A DNA stretch of 64,000 bases, taken from assembly GCF_003019035.1 (NCBI RefSeq), contig NZ_CP027447.1, one strand, 5' to 3'. A program made the position numbers and the translations under genes. The notes below the pieces were generated by a model that did no database searches, was not told the origin of the DNA, and saw only the letters and a list, made by a program, of their open reading frames with translations. The DNA comes from Escherichia coli (lineage in GTDB: Bacteria; Pseudomonadota; Gammaproteobacteria; Enterobacterales; Enterobacteriaceae). Below are positions 22,549 to 57,043 of the stretch, piece after piece; position 1 is the stretch's first letter, and every line of letters begins with the position of its first letter.

Positions 22549-22947
22549 TTATCTGGATTTGTTAACGTCTCTCGTCTCTTCTGGCAGATCTTCATCAAAC
22601 AACCTGCCCTGCATCCGATCCAGTTCTTCTTTTCTGACCCGCTTAACCACGCTGTAGACCCACTGAAGCGAAACACCAAACTTGCGGGCCAGTTCATGGT
22701 GGTTGCGTCCGTTAAACTCCCGGAAGATTTCCCGGTCGCGCTGACTGACCTTCCATACCATGCCCATCGGGAAATAAACGTTTTGCCCGCCCCAGACCTG
22801 CATCATGCGGTTCGCGACGGCCTGACCAATCTGGTCGGCAATTGCGGGCTCAATATCAATAATCTCGCGAACGGTCTCAGAGGTATGCTGTGCCAGTTCC
22901 ACCAGGAGTTCCGGCCCTTTACTTCGAAACTGATTCAGGTCGCTCAT
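22549..22947 (-). CDS. mor: Mor/C-family middle/late transcription activator
   Basis: IFREFNGRNHHELARKFGVSLQWVYSVVKRVRK closely resembles the conserved Mu Mor C-terminal HTH region. Confidence 0.75.
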   Translation of the reverse strand: MSDLNQFRSKGPELLVELAQHTSETVREIIDIEPAIADQIGQAVANRMMQVWGGQNVYFPMGMVWKVSQRDREIFREFNGRNHHELARKFGVSLQWVYSVVKRVRKEELDRMQGRLFDEDLPEETRDVNKSR

Positions 22948-33832: not shown

Positions 33833-33962
33833 GTTGCATTCTCCTCTGTGAATAATTCATCGTTTATCCTGCACATCCCGTATCCCCGGCTCTCTTAACG
33901 CGCTTTAAAATCCTTCGCGCCCTGTATTTGTGATGCTGTCTCCACCAGACAAGGAGACACAC

Positions 33963-40479: not shown

Positions 40480-40938
40480 ATGGCTTCCGATAACCTGGTC
40501 AGTATCACCATTAACGATAAATCCCTGCGCCGGAGCCTCCGTGCGCTGGATCTTGCTGCCACAGACCTGGAGCCCGCGATGCGCAAAATCGCCGGAACCC
40601 TGCTGGCGGAAACACAGTTTAACTTTCTTGATGAGGGGCGTCCGGGGTGGATGCCCTCGCTGGCAGCGGAAGAACGTGACGGGCAGACACTGCAGGATAC
40701 CGGGCGTCTGATGGGGTCAGTATCAACCGACCATGACGCCCGGCAGGCTGTTGTGGGGACCAACGTTGTTTACGGTGCCATTCACCAGTTCGGGGGTAAA
40801 ACGGGGCGTAATGAGTCTGTTGAACTTCCGGCCCGCCCGTTCCTGCCGGTGACGGGGGATGGAGAACTACAGCCTGAAGTGGTAATCCCCATCCTCGATA
40901 CCATTGTCCGCCATCTTGAATCAGCGGCCCGTCGCTGA
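40480..40938 (+). CDS. Virion morphogenesis protein (Mu G-like)
   Basis: 152 aa, position after F. Confidence 0.65.
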   Translation: MASDNLVSITINDKSLRRSLRALDLAATDLEPAMRKIAGTLLAETQFNFLDEGRPGWMPSLAAEERDGQTLQDTGRLMGSVSTDHDARQAVVGTNVVYGAIHQFGGKTGRNESVELPARPFLPVTGDGELQPEVVIPILDTIVRHLESAARR

Positions 40939-40980
40939 GTTTTCTCTCTTCAGGCGGGTGATTTATCATTGCCAGCGAAT

Positions 40981-41026
40981 GAGGGGCTGTATTACCTTTA
41001 TAAAGGCTTTACAGCCTCTGTTTTAT
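40981..41026 (+). terminator. Putative terminator between head-assembly and capsid operons
   Basis: Stem ggggctgta/tacagcctc followed by gttttat. Confidence 0.45.
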
Positions 41027-41152
41027 AACCGCTTCCGGTTCACCGCATTGCTTTCCCTGTCCTTCTCCCCTGATGTTTTCTAAAGCAGATTAAAATCGCC
41101 GGGCCTGCATTTCTCACAAACTGTCTCCGACAACATAACGCGGGACAGCAAA

Positions 41153-42268
41153 ATGTCAGCCATTCACATTTTTAAAGCCGGTACTCATACCGATATGCAC
41201 GGCAAAAAACTGCCGTTCACGCCAGACGATCTTGCCGCCTGCGTGAAAGCCTATGACCCGTCCGTCCATGAAGCACCACTCGTGATTGGTCATCCCAGAA
41301 CGGAAGACCCGGCGTGGGGCTGGGTGAAAGCCCTGTCGCTCAGCGGCGTCGATCTGATGGCAGAGCCTGCCCAGCTGGACCCGCAGTTTGCTGAGATGGT
41401 CACCGACGGACGATTCAAAAAAGTGTCCGCCTCTTTCTACCTCCCGGATTCACCGTCCAATCCGAAGCCCGGCGTGCTCTACCTGCGCCATGTGGGCTTT
41501 CTCGGGGCACAGCCACCTTCCGTCAAGGGGCTGAAACAGGTGTCCTTCAGTGAGCAGGAAGAAGGTGTGGTGGAGTTCGCCGACTGGCAGGCCATCACGA
41601 ATGCCTCCCTGTGGGGAAAGCTGCGCGATTTTCTGATCGCCCGCTTCAGTCTGGACGAGGCAGAAAAAGTCCTGCCGGAATGGCAGCTCAACAGTCTGCG
41701 CGAAGAGGCGTACCGCGACACACTGTCGCAGGATGCAGCAGGTGCCCAATTCAGTGAGACAGGCCCGGGGCCGTCTTCCGCAAGTAACGAGGAATCATCG
41801 ATGACAAAAGAAGAGATTGAAGCCCTTCAGGAGGAGAACCGCCGCCTGAAGCAGCAGGCTGCTGATCGCGATGCGCGTGATGCACAGGTCAGACAGGAGC
41901 AACTGCATAAGGACAATGTGGCCTTTGCAGAAAAACTGGTCGCAGAGGGCCGTCTGGCTCCCCGCGCCTCCTCCGTGGTGGTTGCCCTGCTGGATGCCGT
42001 CGCCGGTGGCGACAAGCCGGTGGAGTTTGCTGAGGGGGAAAGCCGCACACCGCTGGCCACCGCCTTTCGTTCATTGCTCTCCGACGGGGAGCCGGTGATG
42101 AATTTCGCCGAACAGGCCACAAAAGAGCGTGTCGGCGACACGGTGAAGGTGGATGTGGCGGAGTTTGCGGAAGCCGATCCTGAGCGTCTGGCCCTGCATC
42201 AGAAAGCAGTGGCCCTGTCCAAAAAAGAAGGCATCAGCTATGAGGCTGCTGTCGCACGCTGCCTGTAA
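41153..42268 (+). CDS. Putative head protease/scaffold (Mu I-like)
   Basis: 371 aa with coiled-coil C-terminal half, immediately before the major capsid gene. Confidence 0.55.
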   Translation: MSAIHIFKAGTHTDMHGKKLPFTPDDLAACVKAYDPSVHEAPLVIGHPRTEDPAWGWVKALSLSGVDLMAEPAQLDPQFAEMVTDGRFKKVSASFYLPDSPSNPKPGVLYLRHVGFLGAQPPSVKGLKQVSFSEQEEGVVEFADWQAITNASLWGKLRDFLIARFSLDEAEKVLPEWQLNSLREEAYRDTLSQDAAGAQFSETGPGPSSASNEESSMTKEEIEALQEENRRLKQQAADRDARDAQVRQEQLHKDNVAFAEKLVAEGRLAPRASSVVVALLDAVAGGDKPVEFAEGESRTPLATAFRSLLSDGEPVMNFAEQATKERVGDTVKVDVAEFAEADPERLALHQKAVALSKKEGISYEAAVARCL

Positions 42269-44496: not shown

Positions 44497-44747
44497 TGAA
44501 AGAATACCGCTATTCCGGCCCGGCCAGCGGCGTCACGCTGTGGGACGGAACCGAAATCCTGCTCTGGCCGGGGAAGACGGTTTCCCTGCCGGAGGAGCAT
44601 GACTACGTGAAGGTACTGGTGGCGCTGAAGCATCTGACGCCGGTACCAGAAGATACTAAACCCGCCGTCACACCGGCAGTGCAGTCACCAAAGCGCAGAA
44701 GCAGCAGTGACAGCGAAGTGAAAACGGAGGACTCCCATGGCAGCTAA
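44493..44747 (+). CDS. Hypothetical small protein (84 aa)
   Basis: ORF overlapping both neighbours. Confidence 0.45.
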   Translation: MMKEYRYSGPASGVTLWDGTEILLWPGKTVSLPEEHDYVKVLVALKHLTPVPEDTKPAVTPAVQSPKRRSSSDSEVKTEDSHGS

Positions 44748-46164
44748 CTATCTGCATGGCGTCGAAACCATTGAGGTGGAAAACGGAGCCCGCCCGGTTA
44801 AAACGGTGAAATCTGCCGTTATTGGCCTGATTGGTACCGCCCCGATGGGGGATGTCAATACGCTGGTACAGTGCCTGTCTGAGAAAGACGCTGCGGCATT
44901 TGGCAGCCAGTTCACCGGCTTTACCATTCCGCAGGCGCTGGATGCGATTTATGACCATGGTGCAGGCACCGTTCTGGTCATTAACGTACTCGATCCGTCT
45001 GTGCATAAAACCGCTGTGGTCAGTGAGAATGTGTCGTTCGACAAGGCGACAGGCAGAGCCCGGCTGGCTAATCCGGTGGTCGCGCAGCTGGTACTGAAAC
45101 CGGACAGCGACGGTCAGCCTTATGTTGAAGGTCAGGACTACTCGCTTGATGCACAGACCGGGGTGATTACTAACCTGGGTAAAAGCATTGCTGCAGATGC
45201 AACGGTGAAGGCCAGCTATAACTATGCTGATCCGACCAAAGTCACCCCGGCTGATATCATCGGTACCGTTAACGCTGCAGGCAACCGTACCGGCATGAAG
45301 CTGCTTAACGACAGTTTTAACCTGTTTGGCTACTTCGCCAAAATCCTGATTGCTCCGGTATTCTGCACCCAGAATAGCGTCTCGGTTGAGCTTATCGCCA
45401 TGGCTGAGAAACTGGGAGCAGTAACCTATATTGATGCGCCGGTTGGTACCACTTTTGCGCAGGCTCTGGCGGGACGTGGCCCGGAAGGCACCATTAACTT
45501 TAATACCAGCTCTGACCGTGTCCGCCTGTGCTACCCGCATGTGAAGGTATATGACCCGGTGACGAACACGGAGCGTCTGGAGCCACTGAGCCAGCGTGCG
45601 GCGGGCCTGCGTGCCAAAGTCGACCTGGACAAAGGGTACTGGTGGTCATCCTCCAATCAGGAAATTCTGGGGATCACCGGCGTGGAGCGCCAGCTGTCGG
45701 CAATGATTGACGATCCGCAGAGCGAGGTGAACCTGCTTAACGAACAGGGGATCACCACGGTATTCAGCAGTTACGGCAGCGGCCTTCGTCTGTGGGGTAA
45801 CCGGACGGCAGCATGGCCAACGGTCACCCATATGCGTAACTTTGAGAACGTTCGCCGCACCGGTGATGTGATCAACGAGTCCATTCGTTACTTCAGCCAG
45901 CAGTACATCGACATGCCGATTACTCAGGCGCTGATTGATGCACTGACGGAGTCGGTCAACGCCTACGGTCGCAAAATGACTGGTGATGGTGCGGTACTGG
46001 GCTTCCGTTGCTGGTTTGATCCGGCCCGCAATCCGGAGACGGAGCTGGCCGCCGGGCACCTGTTGCTGAGCTACAAATATACGCCACCACCGCCGCTGGA
46101 GCGACTGACGTTTGAGACTGAAATCACCTCGGAATACCTGTTAACCCTGAAAGGGGGCAACTGA
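44737..46164 (+). CDS. Contractile tail sheath protein
   Basis: 475 aa directly upstream of the tube gene. Confidence 0.8.
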   Translation: MAANYLHGVETIEVENGARPVKTVKSAVIGLIGTAPMGDVNTLVQCLSEKDAAAFGSQFTGFTIPQALDAIYDHGAGTVLVINVLDPSVHKTAVVSENVSFDKATGRARLANPVVAQLVLKPDSDGQPYVEGQDYSLDAQTGVITNLGKSIAADATVKASYNYADPTKVTPADIIGTVNAAGNRTGMKLLNDSFNLFGYFAKILIAPVFCTQNSVSVELIAMAEKLGAVTYIDAPVGTTFAQALAGRGPEGTINFNTSSDRVRLCYPHVKVYDPVTNTERLEPLSQRAAGLRAKVDLDKGYWWSSSNQEILGITGVERQLSAMIDDPQSEVNLLNEQGITTVFSSYGSGLRLWGNRTAAWPTVTHMRNFENVRRTGDVINESIRYFSQQYIDMPITQALIDALTESVNAYGRKMTGDGAVLGFRCWFDPARNPETELAAGHLLLSYKYTPPPPLERLTFETEITSEYLLTLKGGN

Positions 46165-46685
46165 TGTCAAAGATTGAGATAAACCGAATCACGAATGCCA
46201 ACATCTATCTGGATGGTACTAACCTGCTGGGACGGGCTGAGGAAGTTAAACTCCCCGATGTCTCCATGATTATGCAGGAGCACAAGGCACTGGGGATGGT
46301 GGGTAAGGTGGAACTCCCGGCTGGTTTTGACAAACTGGAAGGCGAAATCAAATGGAACAGCTTTTACCGCGATGCGATGTTGTCTGCCGCGAACCCGTAC
46401 AGGTCGCTGGCGCTGCAGTGTCGCTCCAGCGTCCAGCGCTACAGCTCGCAGGGGCTGATCGACGAAATCCCGCTGGTCACCTTCCTGACAATTATGTTCA
46501 AGAAGAACCCGCTGGGGACGTTCAAACAGCACGAGAACGCCGAGTTCTCCAGTAGCTTCACCTGCACGTATATCAGACAGGTACTGGATGGTGAAGAGTT
46601 GCTGCAACTGGACTATCTGGCCAACATCTTCCGCGTCGGTGGCGTTGATCAACTGACTGACTATCGAATCAATATCGGGGGCTGA
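46164..46685 (+). CDS. Tail tube protein
   Basis: 173 aa following the sheath. Confidence 0.8.
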   Translation: MSKIEINRITNANIYLDGTNLLGRAEEVKLPDVSMIMQEHKALGMVGKVELPAGFDKLEGEIKWNSFYRDAMLSAANPYRSLALQCRSSVQRYSSQGLIDEIPLVTFLTIMFKKNPLGTFKQHENAEFSSSFTCTYIRQVLDGEELLQLDYLANIFRVGGVDQLTDYRINIGG

Positions 46686-46687
46686 CG

Positions 46688-46969
46688 GTGAGTGTTGAAC
46701 TGACTGACAAAGGAGGGCGATGTGCGTCACTGGGCATGTCAAATGGTACGTGGTTTACCCTCCTTGATATTCCGGGGGTGGAGACCCTCTTTAATACCCG
46801 TAAAACCAATGACCCGATTGACTGCACACGTTCAAAGGCCCGCAAACTGGCCGATTTGATTGAAGCATGGGAGCCGCCCGACCAGTGGTTCTCCGGCACC
46901 GGCAACTCTGAGGGAAAGGCGCTTCTCATCGCTTTCCTGCGTAACTGCAAGGGTTTTCGCACTTGCTGA
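46688..46969 (+). CDS. Hypothetical small protein (93 aa) followed by a terminator
   Basis: GTG-start ORF between tube and chaperone genes. Confidence 0.4.
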   Translation: MSVELTDKGGRCASLGMSNGTWFTLLDIPGVETLFNTRKTNDPIDCTRSKARKLADLIEAWEPPDQWFSGTGNSEGKALLIAFLRNCKGFRTC

Positions 46970-46976
46970 CATCACA

Positions 46977-47001
46977 GGGGCTCCGGCCCCTTCTTTTTAA
47001 T
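46977..47001 (+). terminator. Rho-independent terminator inside the tail operon
   Basis: GGGGC-TCCG-GCCCC hairpin followed by TTCTTTTTAAT. Confidence 0.65.
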
Positions 47002-47066
47002 CCCCTTTAATATCCGTCACGTCCACCGCCAGACATACTGCTCTGAATTTACAAAGGAGTATGATC

Positions 47067-47402
47067 ATGTCACAGACCCAGTCCGATACTTTTACGCTGT
47101 CTTATCCTTTCACCACTGCTGCAGGTACCAGAATTGAACAGATTGAACTGAAACGCCTGACAGTAAAAGACCTGAAGCAGGTGCGCAAAATCAACAAAGA
47201 CCCGACAGACTGGGACGAACCACTGATTGCCCGTAGCACCGGTATCCTCCCGGAAGACCTCGATAACATGGATCTTGCCGACTATATGGAGCTGCAGAAA
47301 CGATTTCAGAAAATCACTGGGCTGGGCAAGAGCGACAAAAACACTGATGCAGGCGCAGGGCCTGCTGGCGAGATGGTTCAGGTTTCAACCGGGGGAGATT
47401 GA
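47067..47402 (+). CDS. Tail assembly chaperone (frame-0 product)
   Basis: AGGAG RBS 7 nt upstream; position between tube and tape measure. Confidence 0.65.
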   Translation: MSQTQSDTFTLSYPFTTAAGTRIEQIELKRLTVKDLKQVRKINKDPTDWDEPLIARSTGILPEDLDNMDLADYMELQKRFQKITGLGKSDKNTDAGAGPAGEMVQVSTGGD

Positions 47403-47484
47403 TGCCCTCGATACTGACGATCTGGAGATGTGGCTGGAGCAGGCTGAAGAGCAAATCAAAAGCGAGTTCGGCGACAATCAGTAA
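47227..47484 (+). CDS. Overlapping ORF, probable frameshift extension of the tail chaperone
   Basis: ORF in the other frame overlapping the chaperone 3' half and extending 82 nt beyond its stop. Confidence 0.5.
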   Translation: MPVAPVSSRKTSITWILPTIWSCRNDFRKSLGWARATKTLMQAQGLLARWFRFQPGEIDALDTDDLEMWLEQAEEQIKSEFGDNQ

Positions 47485-47577
47485 CAACGTATCACTTAAC
47501 AGCCGCCAGTCGCGGCTGTTCTGCATGGGTTTCAGACACTTCCCTTCCGTTTTTTTTGCTTTCAGAGGATAGCCACC

Positions 47578-50043
47578 GTGGCCAGTGAATTTTCAGTCGG
47601 CGTCATTATTGGCGGCATTGTCGGGAGCAGCTTCCGCTCAGCCGTCAGTGGCACCCGACGCGCCCTTGATTCCCTTGGTGATACCTCCCGCCGTCTGCAG
47701 GAACGCCAGAATGCCTTAACCCGGGCAACAGAACGTTATGGTCAACTGGGTTCTTCCCGGATGCAGCATCTCAACAGCGAGTTGCTGCGGGTAAGCCGCA
47801 CCATGGAGCAAATTGAACGTCAGCAGCGCCGTCTGTCAGCAGTATCAGCCACCGGTGATGCGTTGAAGGCTAACCGCCTGGCGCTCTATGGTCAGGGTGC
47901 AGAAACCTATGCTATTGGCAGAACGCTGGGCGCACCGGTCATGGCCTCGGTTAAACAATATGCCTCGTTTGAATCACAGTTGCGGGATATCAGTGTCACA
48001 GGAGACCTGGATGCAAAACAGGAACGTGCAATTGGCCAGGCTATCAGACAGGCCTCGCTGAAGGTTAACCAACTGCAGGAGTCTCTGTTAGGGGGAGTCG
48101 GACAATTAGTTGCTGATGGTATGGCCCCCGAACGGGCAGCAACGTTTGCAGAGATGCTTGGAAAGACCGCTACAGCAACCAAAGCCGATATGACCGACCT
48201 TGCCAAAATGACTTATGCCTTCAGCGATGCACTCAGAATCACTGATGCGAAAGAACTTGAACAGGCGTTTGGTATTGCGGCAACAGGAGCCAAACTTGGG
48301 TCATTTGAGCTGAAGGATATGGCAAAAGCATTACCCGGTATGGCTAAAGCCTTCGCTGCTCGTGGTATTTATGGAAAAGATGCGATTACCCAGATTGTTG
48401 CCAGTCTGGAGGTCGGTAAAGGTAGTGGCTCTGCAGAGGAAGCGGTCACCAATATGTCCAACTGGCTGGCAGCAATGGGCCGCGGAGATACCATCCAGAA
48501 ATATGCTAAAGCCGGGGTGGATTACCAGGGGTCAATGCAGAATTACGTCGCTCAGGGTTTTTCGCAGTACGAAGCTTCACTGATGATTGCCAACCGTTTT
48601 ATCGACAGTAAAGGCAAAGCGTTCTTGCAGCAATGGAAAGCTGCAGGAGCAAGAGGCGATCAGGAAGGTCAGCAGAAACTCATGGAGTCATTTGGTCTGG
48701 CTGAGGTCTTTACCGATATTCAGACTGTCAACCATTTACTGTCAATGCGACAGGGCTGGGATAAATACCTTTCCAGTAAGCAGGAAATGAATGCTCCGGC
48801 TGCAATGTCTACCCTGGATAAGGATGCTGCAAAGCAGAATGATACGCTTGAAGGTCGCTGGCGCAGAATGCAGATCGGCTTTAATGATTCTGCTATCAGC
48901 ATCGGGCAATCCTTGCGTCCGGCTTTGCTCCAGTTGGGTGAAACATTTATTCCTTTAATGGACAGCGTCGGCAAATGGATAGCGGCAAATCCGCAGCTCG
49001 TCAGCAGCACCATAAAGGTTGTGGGCGCATTACTCGCTTTCAGGATGGCCACTATCGGTCTCAAGTTTGGGCTGAATCTCCTTATTTCCCCCTTTGTAAG
49101 CGTCTGGAAAAATGCTGTTTTACTTCGGGCCAACTGGCTTCGTCTGATGCTCGCACTGGGGGAAGGCGGTAAACTCCGCTGGCTGGTGACAGGCTTTGGT
49201 GCCGTCGCCAGAGGAGCCAGAACACTGGGGGGTGTGCTCTCAGGGGGGCTGGTTCGCGGAATTATGAGCGCCGGGCGTGCCGTTCTCTGGATTGGCCGGG
49301 CGCTGATGATGAATCCCATCGGTCTCGCTATCACCGCCGTCGCGGCAGCAGCTTACCTTATCTACCGCAACTGGGGCGCGGTCAGTAGCTGGTTTAAACA
49401 GCGCTGGGCTGACATTCAGGAAGCCTTTAACGGCGGTATCGCGGGAATTGGTAAACTGCTGGTTAACTGGTCTCCGGCAGGTCTGCTTTATAAAGCCTTT
49501 GCGGCTGCGCTGAAATATCTCGGCGTTGATTTGCCGGCGAAATTCACCGACTTCGGTGGTCATCTTATTGACGGGCTGATAAATGGCATCAGAAACAAAT
49601 GGGAGTCACTGAAAACCAGCATAACCGGAATGGGTGACAGCATCAGTGACTGGTTCAGCGAAAAGCTGGGCATCCATTCACCGAGTCGCGTGTTTATAGG
49701 CTTTGGTGACAATATCGCGCAGGGTGCCGCCATTGGCCTGCAACGGACCACTCCGCTTGCTGCACTGGCCGGGCAGCGCCTGGCCGCTGAAATGACACCG
49801 GATGTTCCCCGTATCCCGTCGCCGGAAATCATGGCTGCCGGATATTCAGGCCGTGGCGCAACGGCAACCGGCGGTGGAGCGTCTGGCGGTATCCAGGTCA
49901 GCTTTAATCCTCAGTTTTTCCTCAATGGTAAGGAAACCGCAGCGCCTGCCGGGCTGACTGGTGCCCTGAATATGAGCCTGCATGAGCTGGAAAAAATGCT
50001 GGAGCGTCTGCTGGCTCAGAAACAACGTAAGGAGTACAGCTGA
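47578..50043 (+). CDS. Tail tape measure protein
   Basis: 821 aa, helical, Ala/Gly-rich with hydrophobic central segments; GTG start with AGAGGA RBS. Confidence 0.85.
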   Translation: MASEFSVGVIIGGIVGSSFRSAVSGTRRALDSLGDTSRRLQERQNALTRATERYGQLGSSRMQHLNSELLRVSRTMEQIERQQRRLSAVSATGDALKANRLALYGQGAETYAIGRTLGAPVMASVKQYASFESQLRDISVTGDLDAKQERAIGQAIRQASLKVNQLQESLLGGVGQLVADGMAPERAATFAEMLGKTATATKADMTDLAKMTYAFSDALRITDAKELEQAFGIAATGAKLGSFELKDMAKALPGMAKAFAARGIYGKDAITQIVASLEVGKGSGSAEEAVTNMSNWLAAMGRGDTIQKYAKAGVDYQGSMQNYVAQGFSQYEASLMIANRFIDSKGKAFLQQWKAAGARGDQEGQQKLMESFGLAEVFTDIQTVNHLLSMRQGWDKYLSSKQEMNAPAAMSTLDKDAAKQNDTLEGRWRRMQIGFNDSAISIGQSLRPALLQLGETFIPLMDSVGKWIAANPQLVSSTIKVVGALLAFRMATIGLKFGLNLLISPFVSVWKNAVLLRANWLRLMLALGEGGKLRWLVTGFGAVARGARTLGGVLSGGLVRGIMSAGRAVLWIGRALMMNPIGLAITAVAAAAYLIYRNWGAVSSWFKQRWADIQEAFNGGIAGIGKLLVNWSPAGLLYKAFAAALKYLGVDLPAKFTDFGGHLIDGLINGIRNKWESLKTSITGMGDSISDWFSEKLGIHSPSRVFIGFGDNIAQGAAIGLQRTTPLAALAGQRLAAEMTPDVPRIPSPEIMAAGYSGRGATATGGGASGGIQVSFNPQFFLNGKETAAPAGLTGALNMSLHELEKMLERLLAQKQRKEYS

Positions 50044-52805: not shown

Positions 52806-52861
52806 ACCTTCTTAAACGCCTTTAATATCGGCGCTTACTTCCCGGGGGCAATACTGCCTCC

Positions 52862-53209
52862 ATGAAAACGACCTCAGTATTCTGGCAACCAGCTCTGCAG
52901 GCTCCCGGCGAAATCGTCCGGGGGCTGGATGATATCCGGCAGTCCATCCAGATCATCCTGCGGACTCCCCGCGGCAGCGACCCGCATCGCCCGGAGTTCG
53001 GCAGCAATCTGCACCTTTATATCGACTGGCCTGTCGACCGGGCCATTCCGCATGTGGTTCGCGAATCCGTCGATGCCATCAGGCGCTGGGAACCCCGCTG
53101 CCAGCTTATGTCGGTTAAACCCGCCGTCGACGGCGAACATCTTACGCTCCGGGTGAGCTGGAAAGGCTCAGACGGACAACCCCGTACTCAGGAACTGCTA
53201 TGGCGCTGA
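52862..53209 (+). CDS. Baseplate wedge (GPW/gp25-like)
   Basis: 115 aa; position. Confidence 0.7.
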   Translation: MKTTSVFWQPALQAPGEIVRGLDDIRQSIQIILRTPRGSDPHRPEFGSNLHLYIDWPVDRAIPHVVRESVDAIRRWEPRCQLMSVKPAVDGEHLTLRVSWKGSDGQPRTQELLWR

Positions 53210-54876: not shown

Positions 54877-55845
54877 ATGGCAAATCTACCCGAAACCCCG
54901 CAGTGGGAAAGCGGCATCTACCAGATTGAGGTCTCTGACCCCGTTCTGGGCGGACCTGACGGAATTTCTAACCGCCAGGCTAAACAACTGGCCAGCCGAA
55001 CGTCATACCTCAAACAGAAGGTCGAAAAAAGCGGAACAGACCTGGCTGCACATATCGCGGCAGTTGACCCGCATACCCAGTACGCGACGAAAGCCAGTCC
55101 GACATTCACCGGCACACCAACAGCACCTACACCTGCAAATGGTGATAACAGCAAAAAGCTGGCGACGACGGAGTTTGTGGCCAAAGCACTTGCGGCACTT
55201 GCAGGCAGCGCCCCTGAGACACTGGATACGCTTAAAGAGCTGGCTGACGCTCTCGGTAATGATCCAAACTTTGCGACTACGGTACTGAACAAGCTGGCGG
55301 AAAAGCTGGCTAAAGACCAGAACGGCGCAGATATTCCTGAGCCTGCGCTGTTTGTCAAAAACCTTGGTTTGGGGGAAGGCTCTGCACTGCCCGTTGGTGT
55401 GCCCGTTCCGTGGCCCTTAGCAACACCACCAACGGGCTGGCTGAAATGTAACGGTGCAGCATTTTCTTCTGAAATGTACCCCAAACTGGCAAAAGCCTAC
55501 CCCGCGAATAAATTACCGGATTTACGCGGAGAATTTATCCGTGGCTGGGATGATGGGCGAGGAATTGATGCGGCACGCGCTTTATTGAGCATTCAAAACG
55601 GGATGTTGGAAAAACACCGCCATATTGTTGTAGCTAACGATGGATATGACACAAAAGATGAATGGGAGTTGGCTACGATTTTCAAAAAAACATATACACA
55701 AGGCAGGGGGCTTGATGCCACAAATACAGGAGGGAGTTTGACTCCATCACCAACGCTTCATTCACGAGGAAGTATTGGTAACACAGGTGGTAGTGAAACC
55801 CGCCCCCGCAATATTGCATTTAACTATATCGTGAGGGCGGCTTAG
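54877..55845 (+). CDS. Tail fibre protein (constant N-terminus plus invertible C-terminal variant 1)
   Basis: 322 aa; tail-collar-like domain (GWLKCNGAAFSSEMYPKLAKAY...LPDLRGEFIRGWDDGRGID); C-terminal part lies inside the invertible segment. Confidence 0.8.
   Translation: MANLPETPQWESGIYQIEVSDPVLGGPDGISNRQAKQLASRTSYLKQKVEKSGTDLAAHIAAVDPHTQYATKASPTFTGTPTAPTPANGDNSKKLATTEFVAKALAALAGSAPETLDTLKELADALGNDPNFATTVLNKLAEKLAKDQNGADIPEPALFVKNLGLGEGSALPVGVPVPWPLATPPTGWLKCNGAAFSSEMYPKLAKAYPANKLPDLRGEFIRGWDDGRGIDAARALLSIQNGMLEKHRHIVVANDGYDTKDEWELATIFKKTYTQGRGLDATNTGGSLTPSPTLHSRGSIGNTGGSETRPRNIAFNYIVRAA
55352..55377. other. Left invertase crossover site (gix/hix-like)
   Basis: TTGTCAAAAACC-TT-GGTTTGGGGGAA; outer half-site matches the Hin/Gin half-site TTATCAAAAACC. 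Confidence 0.7.
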
Positions 55846-55851
55846 TTATAT

Positions 55852-56469
55852 TCAACTGGCTGCTGCCAGAGGCATTTCCGGCCAGTTGATATCCGGTGCA
55901 GTGCTGATGTCAGTCGCATTAAGCACATCTATGAAATCAAGCACGGCGTTTAGTTTTTCCGTCTCCTGGGGCGTCAATCGGCGTCCGGCTCGTAGTTTGA
56001 GATTTATAAGCTCAACAGATGCCATTGCCTGTTCCTCAAGTTGCTGACGATGCACTCCGGCAGCTTCCAGTTCTGCTGCGTGCTGTCGTCCCGCATCTGT
56101 CACCCAGGTCTCACCATCCCAGACATCATAGATAGTAGCTGGCTGTTTCACCGTCGTATCAGGAGGGTAATCTCCCGGTTGTGTGATTTGCACAGCGTTA
56201 CCATTCTCTGTGCTGTAAACCGTTTCGCCTCTGTGGTCTGGAACATATTTCCAGATGTTCTGGTCGGTATCACGACAGACAGCGAAGCCGGGGCGTTTTT
56301 CTGGTGGCGCGTCAATGCATGAGTGAGCCGGAATTCCAACACCATAAGCGAGATACTCAACAGTGGCAGAGAGATATTCACGGTTTTCAGCATCGTAGTT
56401 ATAAACGGTAATATCGCCTGCAGTTATAGCGATACCATTCTGATCAAGTACTGCAGCAGCATTATTCAT
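55852..56469 (-). CDS. Tail fibre assembly protein (Tfa)
   Basis: 205 aa; C-terminal TDISTAPDINWPEMP resembles the Tfa motif DTSTAPDIEWP. Confidence 0.8.
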   Translation of the reverse strand: MNNAAAVLDQNGIAITAGDITVYNYDAENREYLSATVEYLAYGVGIPAHSCIDAPPEKRPGFAVCRDTDQNIWKYVPDHRGETVYSTENGNAVQITQPGDYPPDTTVKQPATIYDVWDGETWVTDAGRQHAAELEAAGVHRQQLEEQAMASVELINLKLRAGRRLTPQETEKLNAVLDFIDVLNATDISTAPDINWPEMPLAAAS

Positions 56470-56966
56470 TAAGTAGCCCTTACAATATAGTTAAACGCAA
56501 TATTACGGGGGCGGTTTTCCGTTCCTGTATTCCCTCCGTTGGCACCTAATCTATAAACACCACGAGTGCCAATAGCACGTAGTGAAGATGGAACTTTTAC
56601 ACCTGACTCATCTGTTTTAACAATCCCGCCATCACCGTATGTAGCCAGTATACCAGGGTTTGTTCCTGCACGGGTGCTATTTGCGGCAAGCCCTTCACCA
56701 GTCCATAACTCCATATAGTGAATATGATCTATAACCGAATGTGATTGTGCATTAAGCAAGGAACGCCCTGAATCAATTCCCCGCCCGTCATCCCAGCCGC
56801 GAATAAACTCACCCCGTAAATCCGGTAATTTATTCGCGGGGTAGGCTTTTGCCAGTTTGGGGTACATTTCAGAAGAAAATGCTGCACCGTTACATTTCAG
56901 CCACCCTGCTGGCGGTGTGGCTGAGGGCCACGGAACGGGCACACCAACGGGCAGTGCAGAGCCTTC
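56469..56966 (-). CDS. Alternative tail-fibre C-terminal cassette (expressed after inversion)
   Basis: Encodes the same tail-collar region (GEGSALPVGVPVPWP...RGWDDGRGID) followed by a different C-terminus. Confidence 0.7.
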   Translation of the reverse strand, partial: EGSALPVGVPVPWPSATPPAGWLKCNGAAFSSEMYPKLAKAYPANKLPDLRGEFIRGWDDGRGIDSGRSLLNAQSHSVIDHIHYMELWTGEGLAANSTRAGTNPGILATYGDGGIVKTDESGVKVPSSLRAIGTRGVYRLGANGGNTGTENRPRNIAFNYIVRAT

Positions 56967-56978
56967 CCCCAAACCAAC
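56953..56978. other. Right invertase crossover site (gix/hix-like)
   Basis: TTCCCCCAAACC-AA-CGTTTTCGTCTT; inner half-site is the inverted copy of the left inner half-site. Confidence 0.7.
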
Positions 56979-57043
56979 GTTTTCGTCTTAACTCCCACCT
57001 ATACCAGCTATGTATTTTTAACAAAACAAAGAGGATATTTTTC

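Follow-up and report, generated by a model that had tools for sequence, protein, structure and literature searches.

A DUF7739 passenger gene, a terminator-like hairpin of older standing and a candidate Mor-dependent late promoter at the tube-chaperone junction of a BcepMu-like prophage of Escherichia coli

Extra genes lodged in the structural operons of phages are known as morons (the Juhala/Hendrix concept), of which gene 15 in the tail cluster of HK97 and lom and bor of lambda are examples. In Mu-like phages of Pseudomonas (the JBD30 and D3112 group), anti-CRISPR and other accessory loci are found where the Mu G-like gene adjoins the protease/scaffold gene. A third system that bears on the locus described here is late transcription in phage Mu, whose late promoters have no -35 hexamers and are activated by C, a Mor-family protein whose binding site, an imperfect dyad, has its centre at -43.5 (PMC2582627).

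The locus under study lies in a stretch of 64,000 nucleotides of Escherichia coli DNA (contig NZ_CP027447.1; hereafter the window) that carries a BcepMu-like transposable myovirus prophage. Its small gene, ORF93, resembles a moron in being an extra gene between conserved tail genes that is dispensable for assembly and patchy in occurrence, and in belonging to a family that moves between phages. It differs in that we found no promoter of its own, and in that the putative terminator 3' of it is part of the operon and predates the insertion. Judged from the sequence, ORF93 is probably a passenger cistron that is expressed late, and not a self-contained unit transcribed from the prophage. The resemblance to the Pseudomonas anti-CRISPR loci is that of a hotspot in the late region of a Mu-like transposable phage in which unrelated small genes are interchangeable; here, however, the junction is tube to chaperone and not G to I, and there is neither an aca-type regulator gene nor a separate promoter.

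The likeness to Mu late transcription is one of layout. As with the Mu promoters P_lys, P_I, P_P and P_mom, there are four sites at late operon starts, each with a -10-like element without a -35 and with a dyad centred at about -43; a Mor-family activator is encoded as well, and one of the sites (at 41081) occupies the same gene junction as Mu P_I, before the protease/scaffold gene. Unlike in Mu, the recognition sequence is TTAA-N6-TTAAWATC, two of the junctions are those before the chaperone and before a gpW-like gene, one site follows and overlaps a terminator-like hairpin, and the reading of the sites as promoters is drawn from sequence. If that reading is correct, the late-promoter recognition sequence of this BcepMu-like prophage is new, in a layout that is that of Mu.

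Prophage setting and the tube-chaperone junction

The Escherichia phage PhiKM, which is classified in Bcepmuvirus, is 92.6% identical to the tail region of the window, and 640 of the 5426 complete E. coli genomes, ST131 strains among them, contain DNA similar to this region. Strain A31 is 99.7% identical over the tail region and has a prophage of ~38 kb that splits rlmI. The annotation of that prophage includes an integrase-catalytic-domain protein, an ExeA-family protein, a Gam-family host-nuclease inhibitor, a Mor-family activator, Mu-like head genes and P2-like tail genes. Beyond the prophage (window about 22.5-57.7 kb, compared with the A31 locus L091) the flanks of the window had no match to A31, a pattern to be expected of a transposable phage, which can insert at various places in the chromosome.

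The contractile-tail gene cluster occupies 44.7-54 kb of the window. The features that matter for the junction, together with the activator gene, are as follows (positions are those of the window):

22573-22947, minus strand: Mor-family transcription activator (PF08765, 148 bits), located by tblastn
44737-46164: sheath gene
46164-46685, plus strand: tail tube gene, 173 aa (PF04985 Phage_tube, E 2.9e-53)
46677-46690, plus strand: coupling junction read from the sequence, with a GGGGG run (46677-46681), TGA, 2 nt and GTG
46688-46969, plus strand: ORF93, accessory cargo gene of the DUF7739 / phrog_1239 family, 93 aa, GTG start
46976-46998, plus strand: hairpin and T-run, with arms at 46976-46981 and 46986-46991 and TCTTTTT at 46992-46998
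46997-47014, plus strand: dyad TTAA-N6-TTAATATC, candidate site for a Mor-family activator
47034-47039, plus strand: -10-like hexamer CATACT, 19 nt past the box, with no -35
47067-47402, plus strand: tail assembly chaperone gene, gpE/gp41 type (PF10109, E 4.6e-22)
47227-47484: frameshift extension ORF of the chaperone
47578-50043: tape measure gene

The tube protein is 100% identical to that of PhiKM, and the tube stop codon (TGA, 46683-46685) forms the left edge of what we term the cargo slot. The chaperone gene is the first gene of the next late unit; its ATG at 47067 is favoured by AAGGAG at 47054-47059, and in A31 the PGAP annotation has a gene of 336 nt in the same place. The Mor gene of the window is the same one that is annotated as a Mor-family activator in A31.

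Two other parts of the tail region are of note. In Burkholderia and Pseudomonas relatives a small reverse-strand ORF lies between the chaperone and tape measure genes (L006 3597-3839 and L007 3463-3753, both on the minus strand; L numbers denote the loci compared), and this gap is a second, different cargo position of the tail operon. Further downstream, inverted repeats of ~212 bp flank tail-fibre gene segments (window about 55358-56984; L091 38213-41236) and, in the A31 copy, are adjoined by a recombinase-family gene; by analogy, the segment looks like an invertible host-range region of the Mu G-segment type.

ORF93 and the cargo slot

A preliminary description of this DNA, made from the sequence without database searches, had noted a GTG-started ORF of 93 aa between the tube and chaperone genes, proposed that it was an inserted accessory gene and suggested a search with profile models. 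The ORF is present as described, at 46688-46969, with both neighbours matched by Pfam, and the profile search matched it to phrog_1239 from end to end (residues 1-93 to profile positions 1-96 of 96, E 2.8e-47). The score of ORF93 against PF24881 (DUF7739), 25.8 bits, is just below the cut-off of 27. Sf6 gp22 (the product of gene 22), which is 45% identical to ORF93 over the full length, scores 69.4 bits against the same model, and proteins 95% identical to ORF93 carry a precomputed PF24881 hit, so that by transitive homology ORF93 is assigned to DUF7739. Across 12 homologues, down to 41% identity, an N-terminal MxVExxDK and 16 other positions are invariant, and it is the conservation of this N-terminus that identifies the GTG at 46688 as the true start. 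Invariant residues common to ORF93 and the product of Sf6 gene 22 are G16, N19, T21, W22, D42, W61, P63, P64, W67, C87, G89 and F90. The dN/dS of ORF93 against seven relatives is 0.07-0.18; ORF93 is a real gene under purifying selection, and its GC content is like that of the flanking genes. An ORF on the minus strand (46669-46962, 97 aa) was dismissed because conservation, dN/dS and family matches all single out the plus strand.

To describe the slot, the distance from the tube stop to the chaperone start was taken at 86 loci in which homologues of tube and chaperone were both present, with tube identities of 68-100%. The states found were:

~375 nt: ORF93 alone; the majority class, to which virtually every E. 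coli copy belongs
~658 nt: a Phage_gp49_66 gene (PF13876) and ORF93 (L004, L039, L043, L047, L054, L075)
81-146 nt: empty slot (including L005, L006, L051, L052, L055, L058, L062, L067); the slot of L007, a Pseudomonas relative, is empty too
~325-334 nt: a phrog_9518 protein of 66 aa; L070 instead has a phrog_3975 ORF on the reverse strand
400-494 nt: a ~100-aa Fer2-like protein (L082, L087), or other DNA
~250 nt: decayed ORF93, with an internal deletion (L050) or an N-terminal truncation (L077, L078)

Relatives with tube proteins 74-95% identical to that of the window either lack ORF93 or have other cargo in the same place, and at six of the empty loci (L051, L052, L055, L058, L062 and L067) the tube is 91-95% identical. 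The empty class also holds Salmonella SARB27 and Burkholderia vB_CB2b, and the Salmonella, Burkholderia and Pseudomonas relatives are all without ORF93; in the Pseudomonas phage Bise there is no ORF93 and no hairpin, and the chaperone gene begins 5 nt past the tube stop. At least four unrelated small genes fill the slot among relatives, and the position of the cargo is constant, between the tube stop and the hairpin. Since close relatives have the slot empty or occupied by unrelated genes, ORF93 is not a core tail gene. The proposal of an inserted accessory gene was therefore borne out: ORF93 is absent or replaced in close relatives and its family occurs in unrelated phage types, and the 86 loci do not show a tail gene conserved in all relatives.

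The ferredoxin-like cargo (L082 3073-3375 and L087 3037-3369; PF00111, 27.6 bits; phrog_844) is of the 2Fe-2S type, with serine or aspartate in place of the usual cluster-binding cysteines. As these ligands are replaced, the protein is probably unable to hold an iron-sulfur cluster.

At single loci among L001-L090 the tube is 96-100% identical to that of the window and the identities of ORF93 and the chaperone fall to 71-94% (at L038, the values for tube, ORF93 and chaperone are 96.5, 77 and 77%). This drop past the tube points to a recombination boundary at the tube stop codon, and the ORF93 arrangement is ordinary phage mosaicism.

At the left edge of the slot, the Shine-Dalgarno-like GGGGG run falls inside the last tube codons and there is no room for a promoter. 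A consensus scan, which could miss a weak promoter in the tube gene, found no sigma-70-like site on the plus strand near ORF93, and in the two-gene variant the gp49_66 and ORF93 cistrons overlap. We take ORF93 to lack both a promoter and a terminator that are specific to it, and to be translationally coupled to the tube gene.

A profile search of the full library yielded 87 representatives of the ORF93 family at 50% identity, nearly all of which stand alone at a length of about 93-100 aa; none of the 87 showed an informative fusion to another domain. Homologues at 40-54% identity to ORF93 occupy quite different places in their genomes. Sf6 and CUS-3, which are P22-like, short-tailed phages, have theirs in the early-left operon, and so does HK75. 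Sf6 gene 22 and the DUF7739 proteins of P22-like phages are homologous to ORF93 over the full length (45% identity), and whereas genes of this type, in the early-left operon of short-tailed temperate phages, are presumably expressed early, ORF93 would be part of a late tail transcript. Elsewhere, the homologue is situated between rdgC and int, again in an early-left region (Edwardsiella phage EPP-1), among Ea-type genes in the early-left region (an Enterobacter phage) or downstream of pmgS and pap (a P1-like phage). Phage-plasmids of about 95-107 kb, which we take to be sizes typical of P1-like and pHCM2-like elements, also carry homologues, and in metagenomic contigs they adjoin integrase, terminase or Mu-F-like genes. 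The genomic neighbours of the homologues in these other contexts include no constant partner gene. On this distribution, DUF7739 / phrog_1239 is a small promiscuous phage family.

Gene 123 of the Yersinia phage fHe-Yen8-01 (L008 3501-3809), whose product is 41% identical to ORF93, is annotated as a 'particle associated protein', and it clusters with genes for other particle-associated proteins and with a gene for a 2147-aa ADP-ribosyltransferase toxin. A search of the literature found no paper giving the basis of this annotation, and nothing usable on DUF7739, fHe-Yen8-01 or hkaH.

The AlphaFold (AF2) model of ORF93 has a small alpha/beta fold (pLDDT 87, pTM 0.79), from which ORF93 is predicted to be a small soluble alpha/beta protein; inspection of the sequence by eye found no signal peptide or membrane segment. 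The charge is near-neutral by manual count (about 11 acidic and 12 basic residues), unlike that of the DNA mimic DMP12, and on these grounds ORF93 is not a DNA mimic. Foldseek searches with the model gave no match with E below 0.001 in the PDB and only unnamed or uncharacterised proteins in BFVD. NCBIfam and PADLOC had no match for ORF93, the near-threshold DUF7739 hit was the sole match in Pfam, and no tail-related family was matched in Pfam or PHROGs.

The hairpin and the late-promoter-like motif

The preliminary description also placed a GC hairpin and T-run directly after the ORF, and this feature was confirmed at 46976-46998. The hairpin, AGGGGC-UCCG-GCCCCU, begins seven bases past the ORF93 stop and has a 6-bp stem with 5 GC pairs and a 4-nt loop; it ranked best among the terminator-like sites in 40-55 kb. 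Its free energy is -12.8 kcal/mol (z = -3.1), with 2 of 200 shuffles folding equally well, and Rfam identified no known RNA family in 46000-47700. As a single-sequence fold the hairpin is only moderately unlikely, and that it is more than chance follows from its conservation, with compensatory stem changes, in relatives.

A hairpin with a T-run is present in the empty slots of L005, L006, L051, L052, L055, L067, L081 and L085. The stems of empty enterobacterial slots are GGGGGCC/GGYUCCC, GGGAGC/GCUCCC and CGGAGC/GCUCCG, with a T-run in each. Right after the tube stop, the Salmonella relative has CUUCGGGGC-UGCG-GCCCCGAA-UUU and the Burkholderia phage has GGCCCGC-UUCG-GCGGGCC-UUUUUU, and the stem behind the phrog_9518 cargo is GGAGGGA/UCCCUCC. 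Seventeen distinct hairpins were aligned by hand, centred on their 4-nt loops, because MAFFT put 4 of the 17 out of register. In this alignment 92% of the pair cells are Watson-Crick or G-U, compared with 73 +/- 2.3% (maximum 83%) when the 3' arms were swapped between sequences and 40-69% in shifted registers, and compensatory double changes (GC to CG or GC to AT) are found at all six inner pairs. Because the hairpin is in the same position in cargo-free relatives and behind unrelated cargo, it did not arrive with ORF93. The comparison indicates that the hairpin is ancestral operon punctuation, upstream of which ORF93 (or gp49_66 and ORF93) was inserted, and we infer that it serves as an intrinsic terminator and 3'-end stabiliser closing the sheath-tube unit.

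The sequence that follows the hairpin reads TTAA-tcccct-TTAATATC, nineteen nucleotides and then CATACTG (46997-47040), and the upstream half-site of the dyad overlaps the T-run of the hairpin. A transcription start near 47046, as suggested by the hexamer, would place the dyad centre (47003.5) at about -42.5. The pattern TAA-N6-TTAAWATC occurs exactly 4 times in the 64 kb, compared with 0.01 expected, and 0 of 100 shuffles reach four. All four copies are on the plus strand and intergenic, and each is at the start of a late operon:

33896-33938, plus strand: motif copy before the holin/lysis genes
41081-41123, plus strand: motif copy before the protease/scaffold gene (41153)
46998-47040, plus strand: motif copy before the chaperone gene
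52813-52856, plus strand: motif copy before the gpW/gp25-like baseplate gene (52862)

The composite motif is (T/C)TAA-N6-TTAAWATC-N19/20-(G/C/A)A(T/A)(A/G)CT, followed by a CTGYCTCC-like stretch. The hexamers are weak (GATGCT, CAAACT, CATACT and AATACT), and no TTGACA-like element was found at the proper spacing at any of the four sites. Upstream of the chaperone gene, the arrangement half-site-N6-TTAAWATC-N19-NATACT is kept in 53 of 59 distinct sequences, and in those 53 the N6 and N19 spacings are exact and the sequence of the 19-nt spacer is free to vary. Fixed spacing with a variable spacer points to two elements contacted by protein, and not to a coding or RNA constraint. Two empty-slot loci, L058 and L062, have lost the hairpin and kept the promoter-like motif. 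In the Salmonella relative the hairpin lies only 20 nt before the chaperone ATG, which leaves no space for the motif, and there is no -10-like element; the downstream genes of that lineage must be read through the hairpin, as there is no room for the promoter motif. From the layout, the statistics and the presence of an activator gene, we infer that the four sites are late promoters dependent on an activator of the Mor/C type, for which the Mor-family protein encoded at 22573-22947 is the candidate factor.

At the gpW-like gene only 5 nt, CCTCC, separate the end of the hexamer from the ATG, and they do not form a Shine-Dalgarno sequence (window 52856-52864); if the motif is a promoter, the mRNA of this gene would have little or no leader. 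The 215-bp junction from the Mu G-like gene to the protease/scaffold gene (window 40921-41153) contains two terminator-like hairpins, at 40921-40938 and 41004-41017, and then the promoter-like motif, and it appears to hold no gene here.

Expression of the junction and its alternatives

The explanation that we favour as a whole, with a probability of about 0.7, is that ORF93 is cargo upstream of an ancestral hairpin-terminator, which is followed by a restart promoter of the Mor/C type. Late transcription from a head-proximal promoter would cross the head-completion, sheath and tube genes and any cargo. ORF93, as the last cistron of the sheath-tube transcript and coupled to the tube gene, would be made late and in quantity, carried as a passenger by the late tail transcript that is most abundant. 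All or much of this transcription would stop at the hairpin, a structure that would also protect the 3' end of the transcript, and the promoter at 46997-47039 would start a second, weaker unit with the chaperone, tape measure and baseplate-hub genes; the chaperone and tape-measure products are needed in far fewer copies than sheath and tube. That a promoter-like element directly follows the hairpin makes it probable that the chaperone unit is expressed by re-initiation, and not by read-through alone.

It is on this last point that an attenuator pure and simple parts from the favoured explanation, as the hairpin would then be a leaky terminator or RNA-stabilising stem in one continuous operon, the downstream motif would not be a promoter, and the chaperone and tape measure genes would be expressed solely from read-through. 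An attenuator that lowers tape-measure expression had been put forward as the alternative in the preliminary description, and it was closer than the leading proposal made there: the hairpin is punctuation between sheath/tube and chaperone/tape measure, and read-through is probably not the only route, given the promoter-like element that follows. The expected high ratio of sheath and tube to tape measure would arise from an attenuator as well, and the interrupted T-run (TCTTTTT), the stem of only 6 bp and the need for read-through in the Salmonella relative are all consistent with one. We nevertheless consider this reading unlikely, as it sits poorly with the fixed spacings about a variable spacer in 53 of 59 distinct relatives, with the presence of the same composite motif at the starts of three further late operons and at no other place in the 64 kb, with the Mor-family activator encoded by the prophage, and with the retention of the motif at the hairpin-less L058 and L062.

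The leading proposal had been that gene and terminator together formed the classic signature of a moron. The accessory gene held up; the remainder did not, as the terminator-like hairpin is older than the cargo and no promoter was found before ORF93. If ORF93 were an autonomous cassette that had brought its terminator along and was served by a cryptic promoter within the 3' end of the tube gene, it would be expressed from the repressed prophage and act in lysogenic conversion or superinfection exclusion. Such a cassette would suit the presence or absence of ORF93 among close relatives, the promiscuity of the family and the hairpin directly 3' of the gene, and PHROGs places the alternative cargo phrog_844 (ferredoxin-like) in its moron/host-takeover category. 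The hairpin, however, stands at the same position without cargo and behind unrelated cargo, no upstream sigma-70-like promoter was found on the plus strand, the GTG lies 2 nt past the tube stop with the Shine-Dalgarno-like run overlapping the tube gene, the genes of the two-gene variant overlap, and ORF93 is without the signal peptide or membrane segment of typical exclusion morons, which together make an autonomous cassette very improbable. Least credible of all is a lineage-specific tail assembly or accessory protein belonging to the structural module, for although ORF93 lies inside the tail cluster where it would be co-expressed with the tube, nearly all of the 640 E. coli genomes have it, with 631 covering >=80% of a 1501-nt query containing ORF93, and the distant fHe-Yen8-01 homologue is labelled as particle associated, the gene is absent from L051, L052, L055 and L058 beside tubes 91-95% identical and decayed in L050 and L077, its homologues include those in early-left operons of short-tailed P22-like phages (Sf6, CUS-3), and it matches no tail-related family.

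What the ORF93 protein does can be suggested only weakly. Its distribution, which is that of an accessory gene, and a fold that resembles those of small inhibitor and immunity proteins prompt the guess that it may be a soluble protein of one small domain that binds or inhibits a target in conflicts of phage with host or of phage with phage; we know of no anti-defence activity for DUF7739. By analogy with the anti-CRISPR locus of the Pseudomonas Mu-like phages, the slot from tube to hairpin in BcepMu-like enterobacterial prophages might be an island for counter-defence or competition, with ORF93 as a small inhibitor protein, an idea we regard as doubtful. If it is true, ORF93, made late alongside the tube protein, could neutralise a host system that is triggered by late structural proteins or, alternatively, could be packaged in virions and so reach the next host, an option hinted at by the annotation of the Yersinia phage homologue.

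Under the favoured explanation, what appears as one unit in the raw sequence is made up of a passenger gene that is mobile and a terminator-promoter junction that belongs to the operon, which is a caution for the calling of morons from sequence. The slot is a hotspot for cargo and has at least six states; the prophage region in which it lies has matches in 640 of the 5426 complete E. coli genomes, and the genes found in the slot (those for DUF7739, gp49_66, phrog_9518, phrog_3975 and the cysteine-less ferredoxin-like protein) are candidates for anti-defence or exclusion functions. For the BcepMu-like prophage group as a whole, the analysis predicts a late-promoter motif and a map of late transcription in four units.
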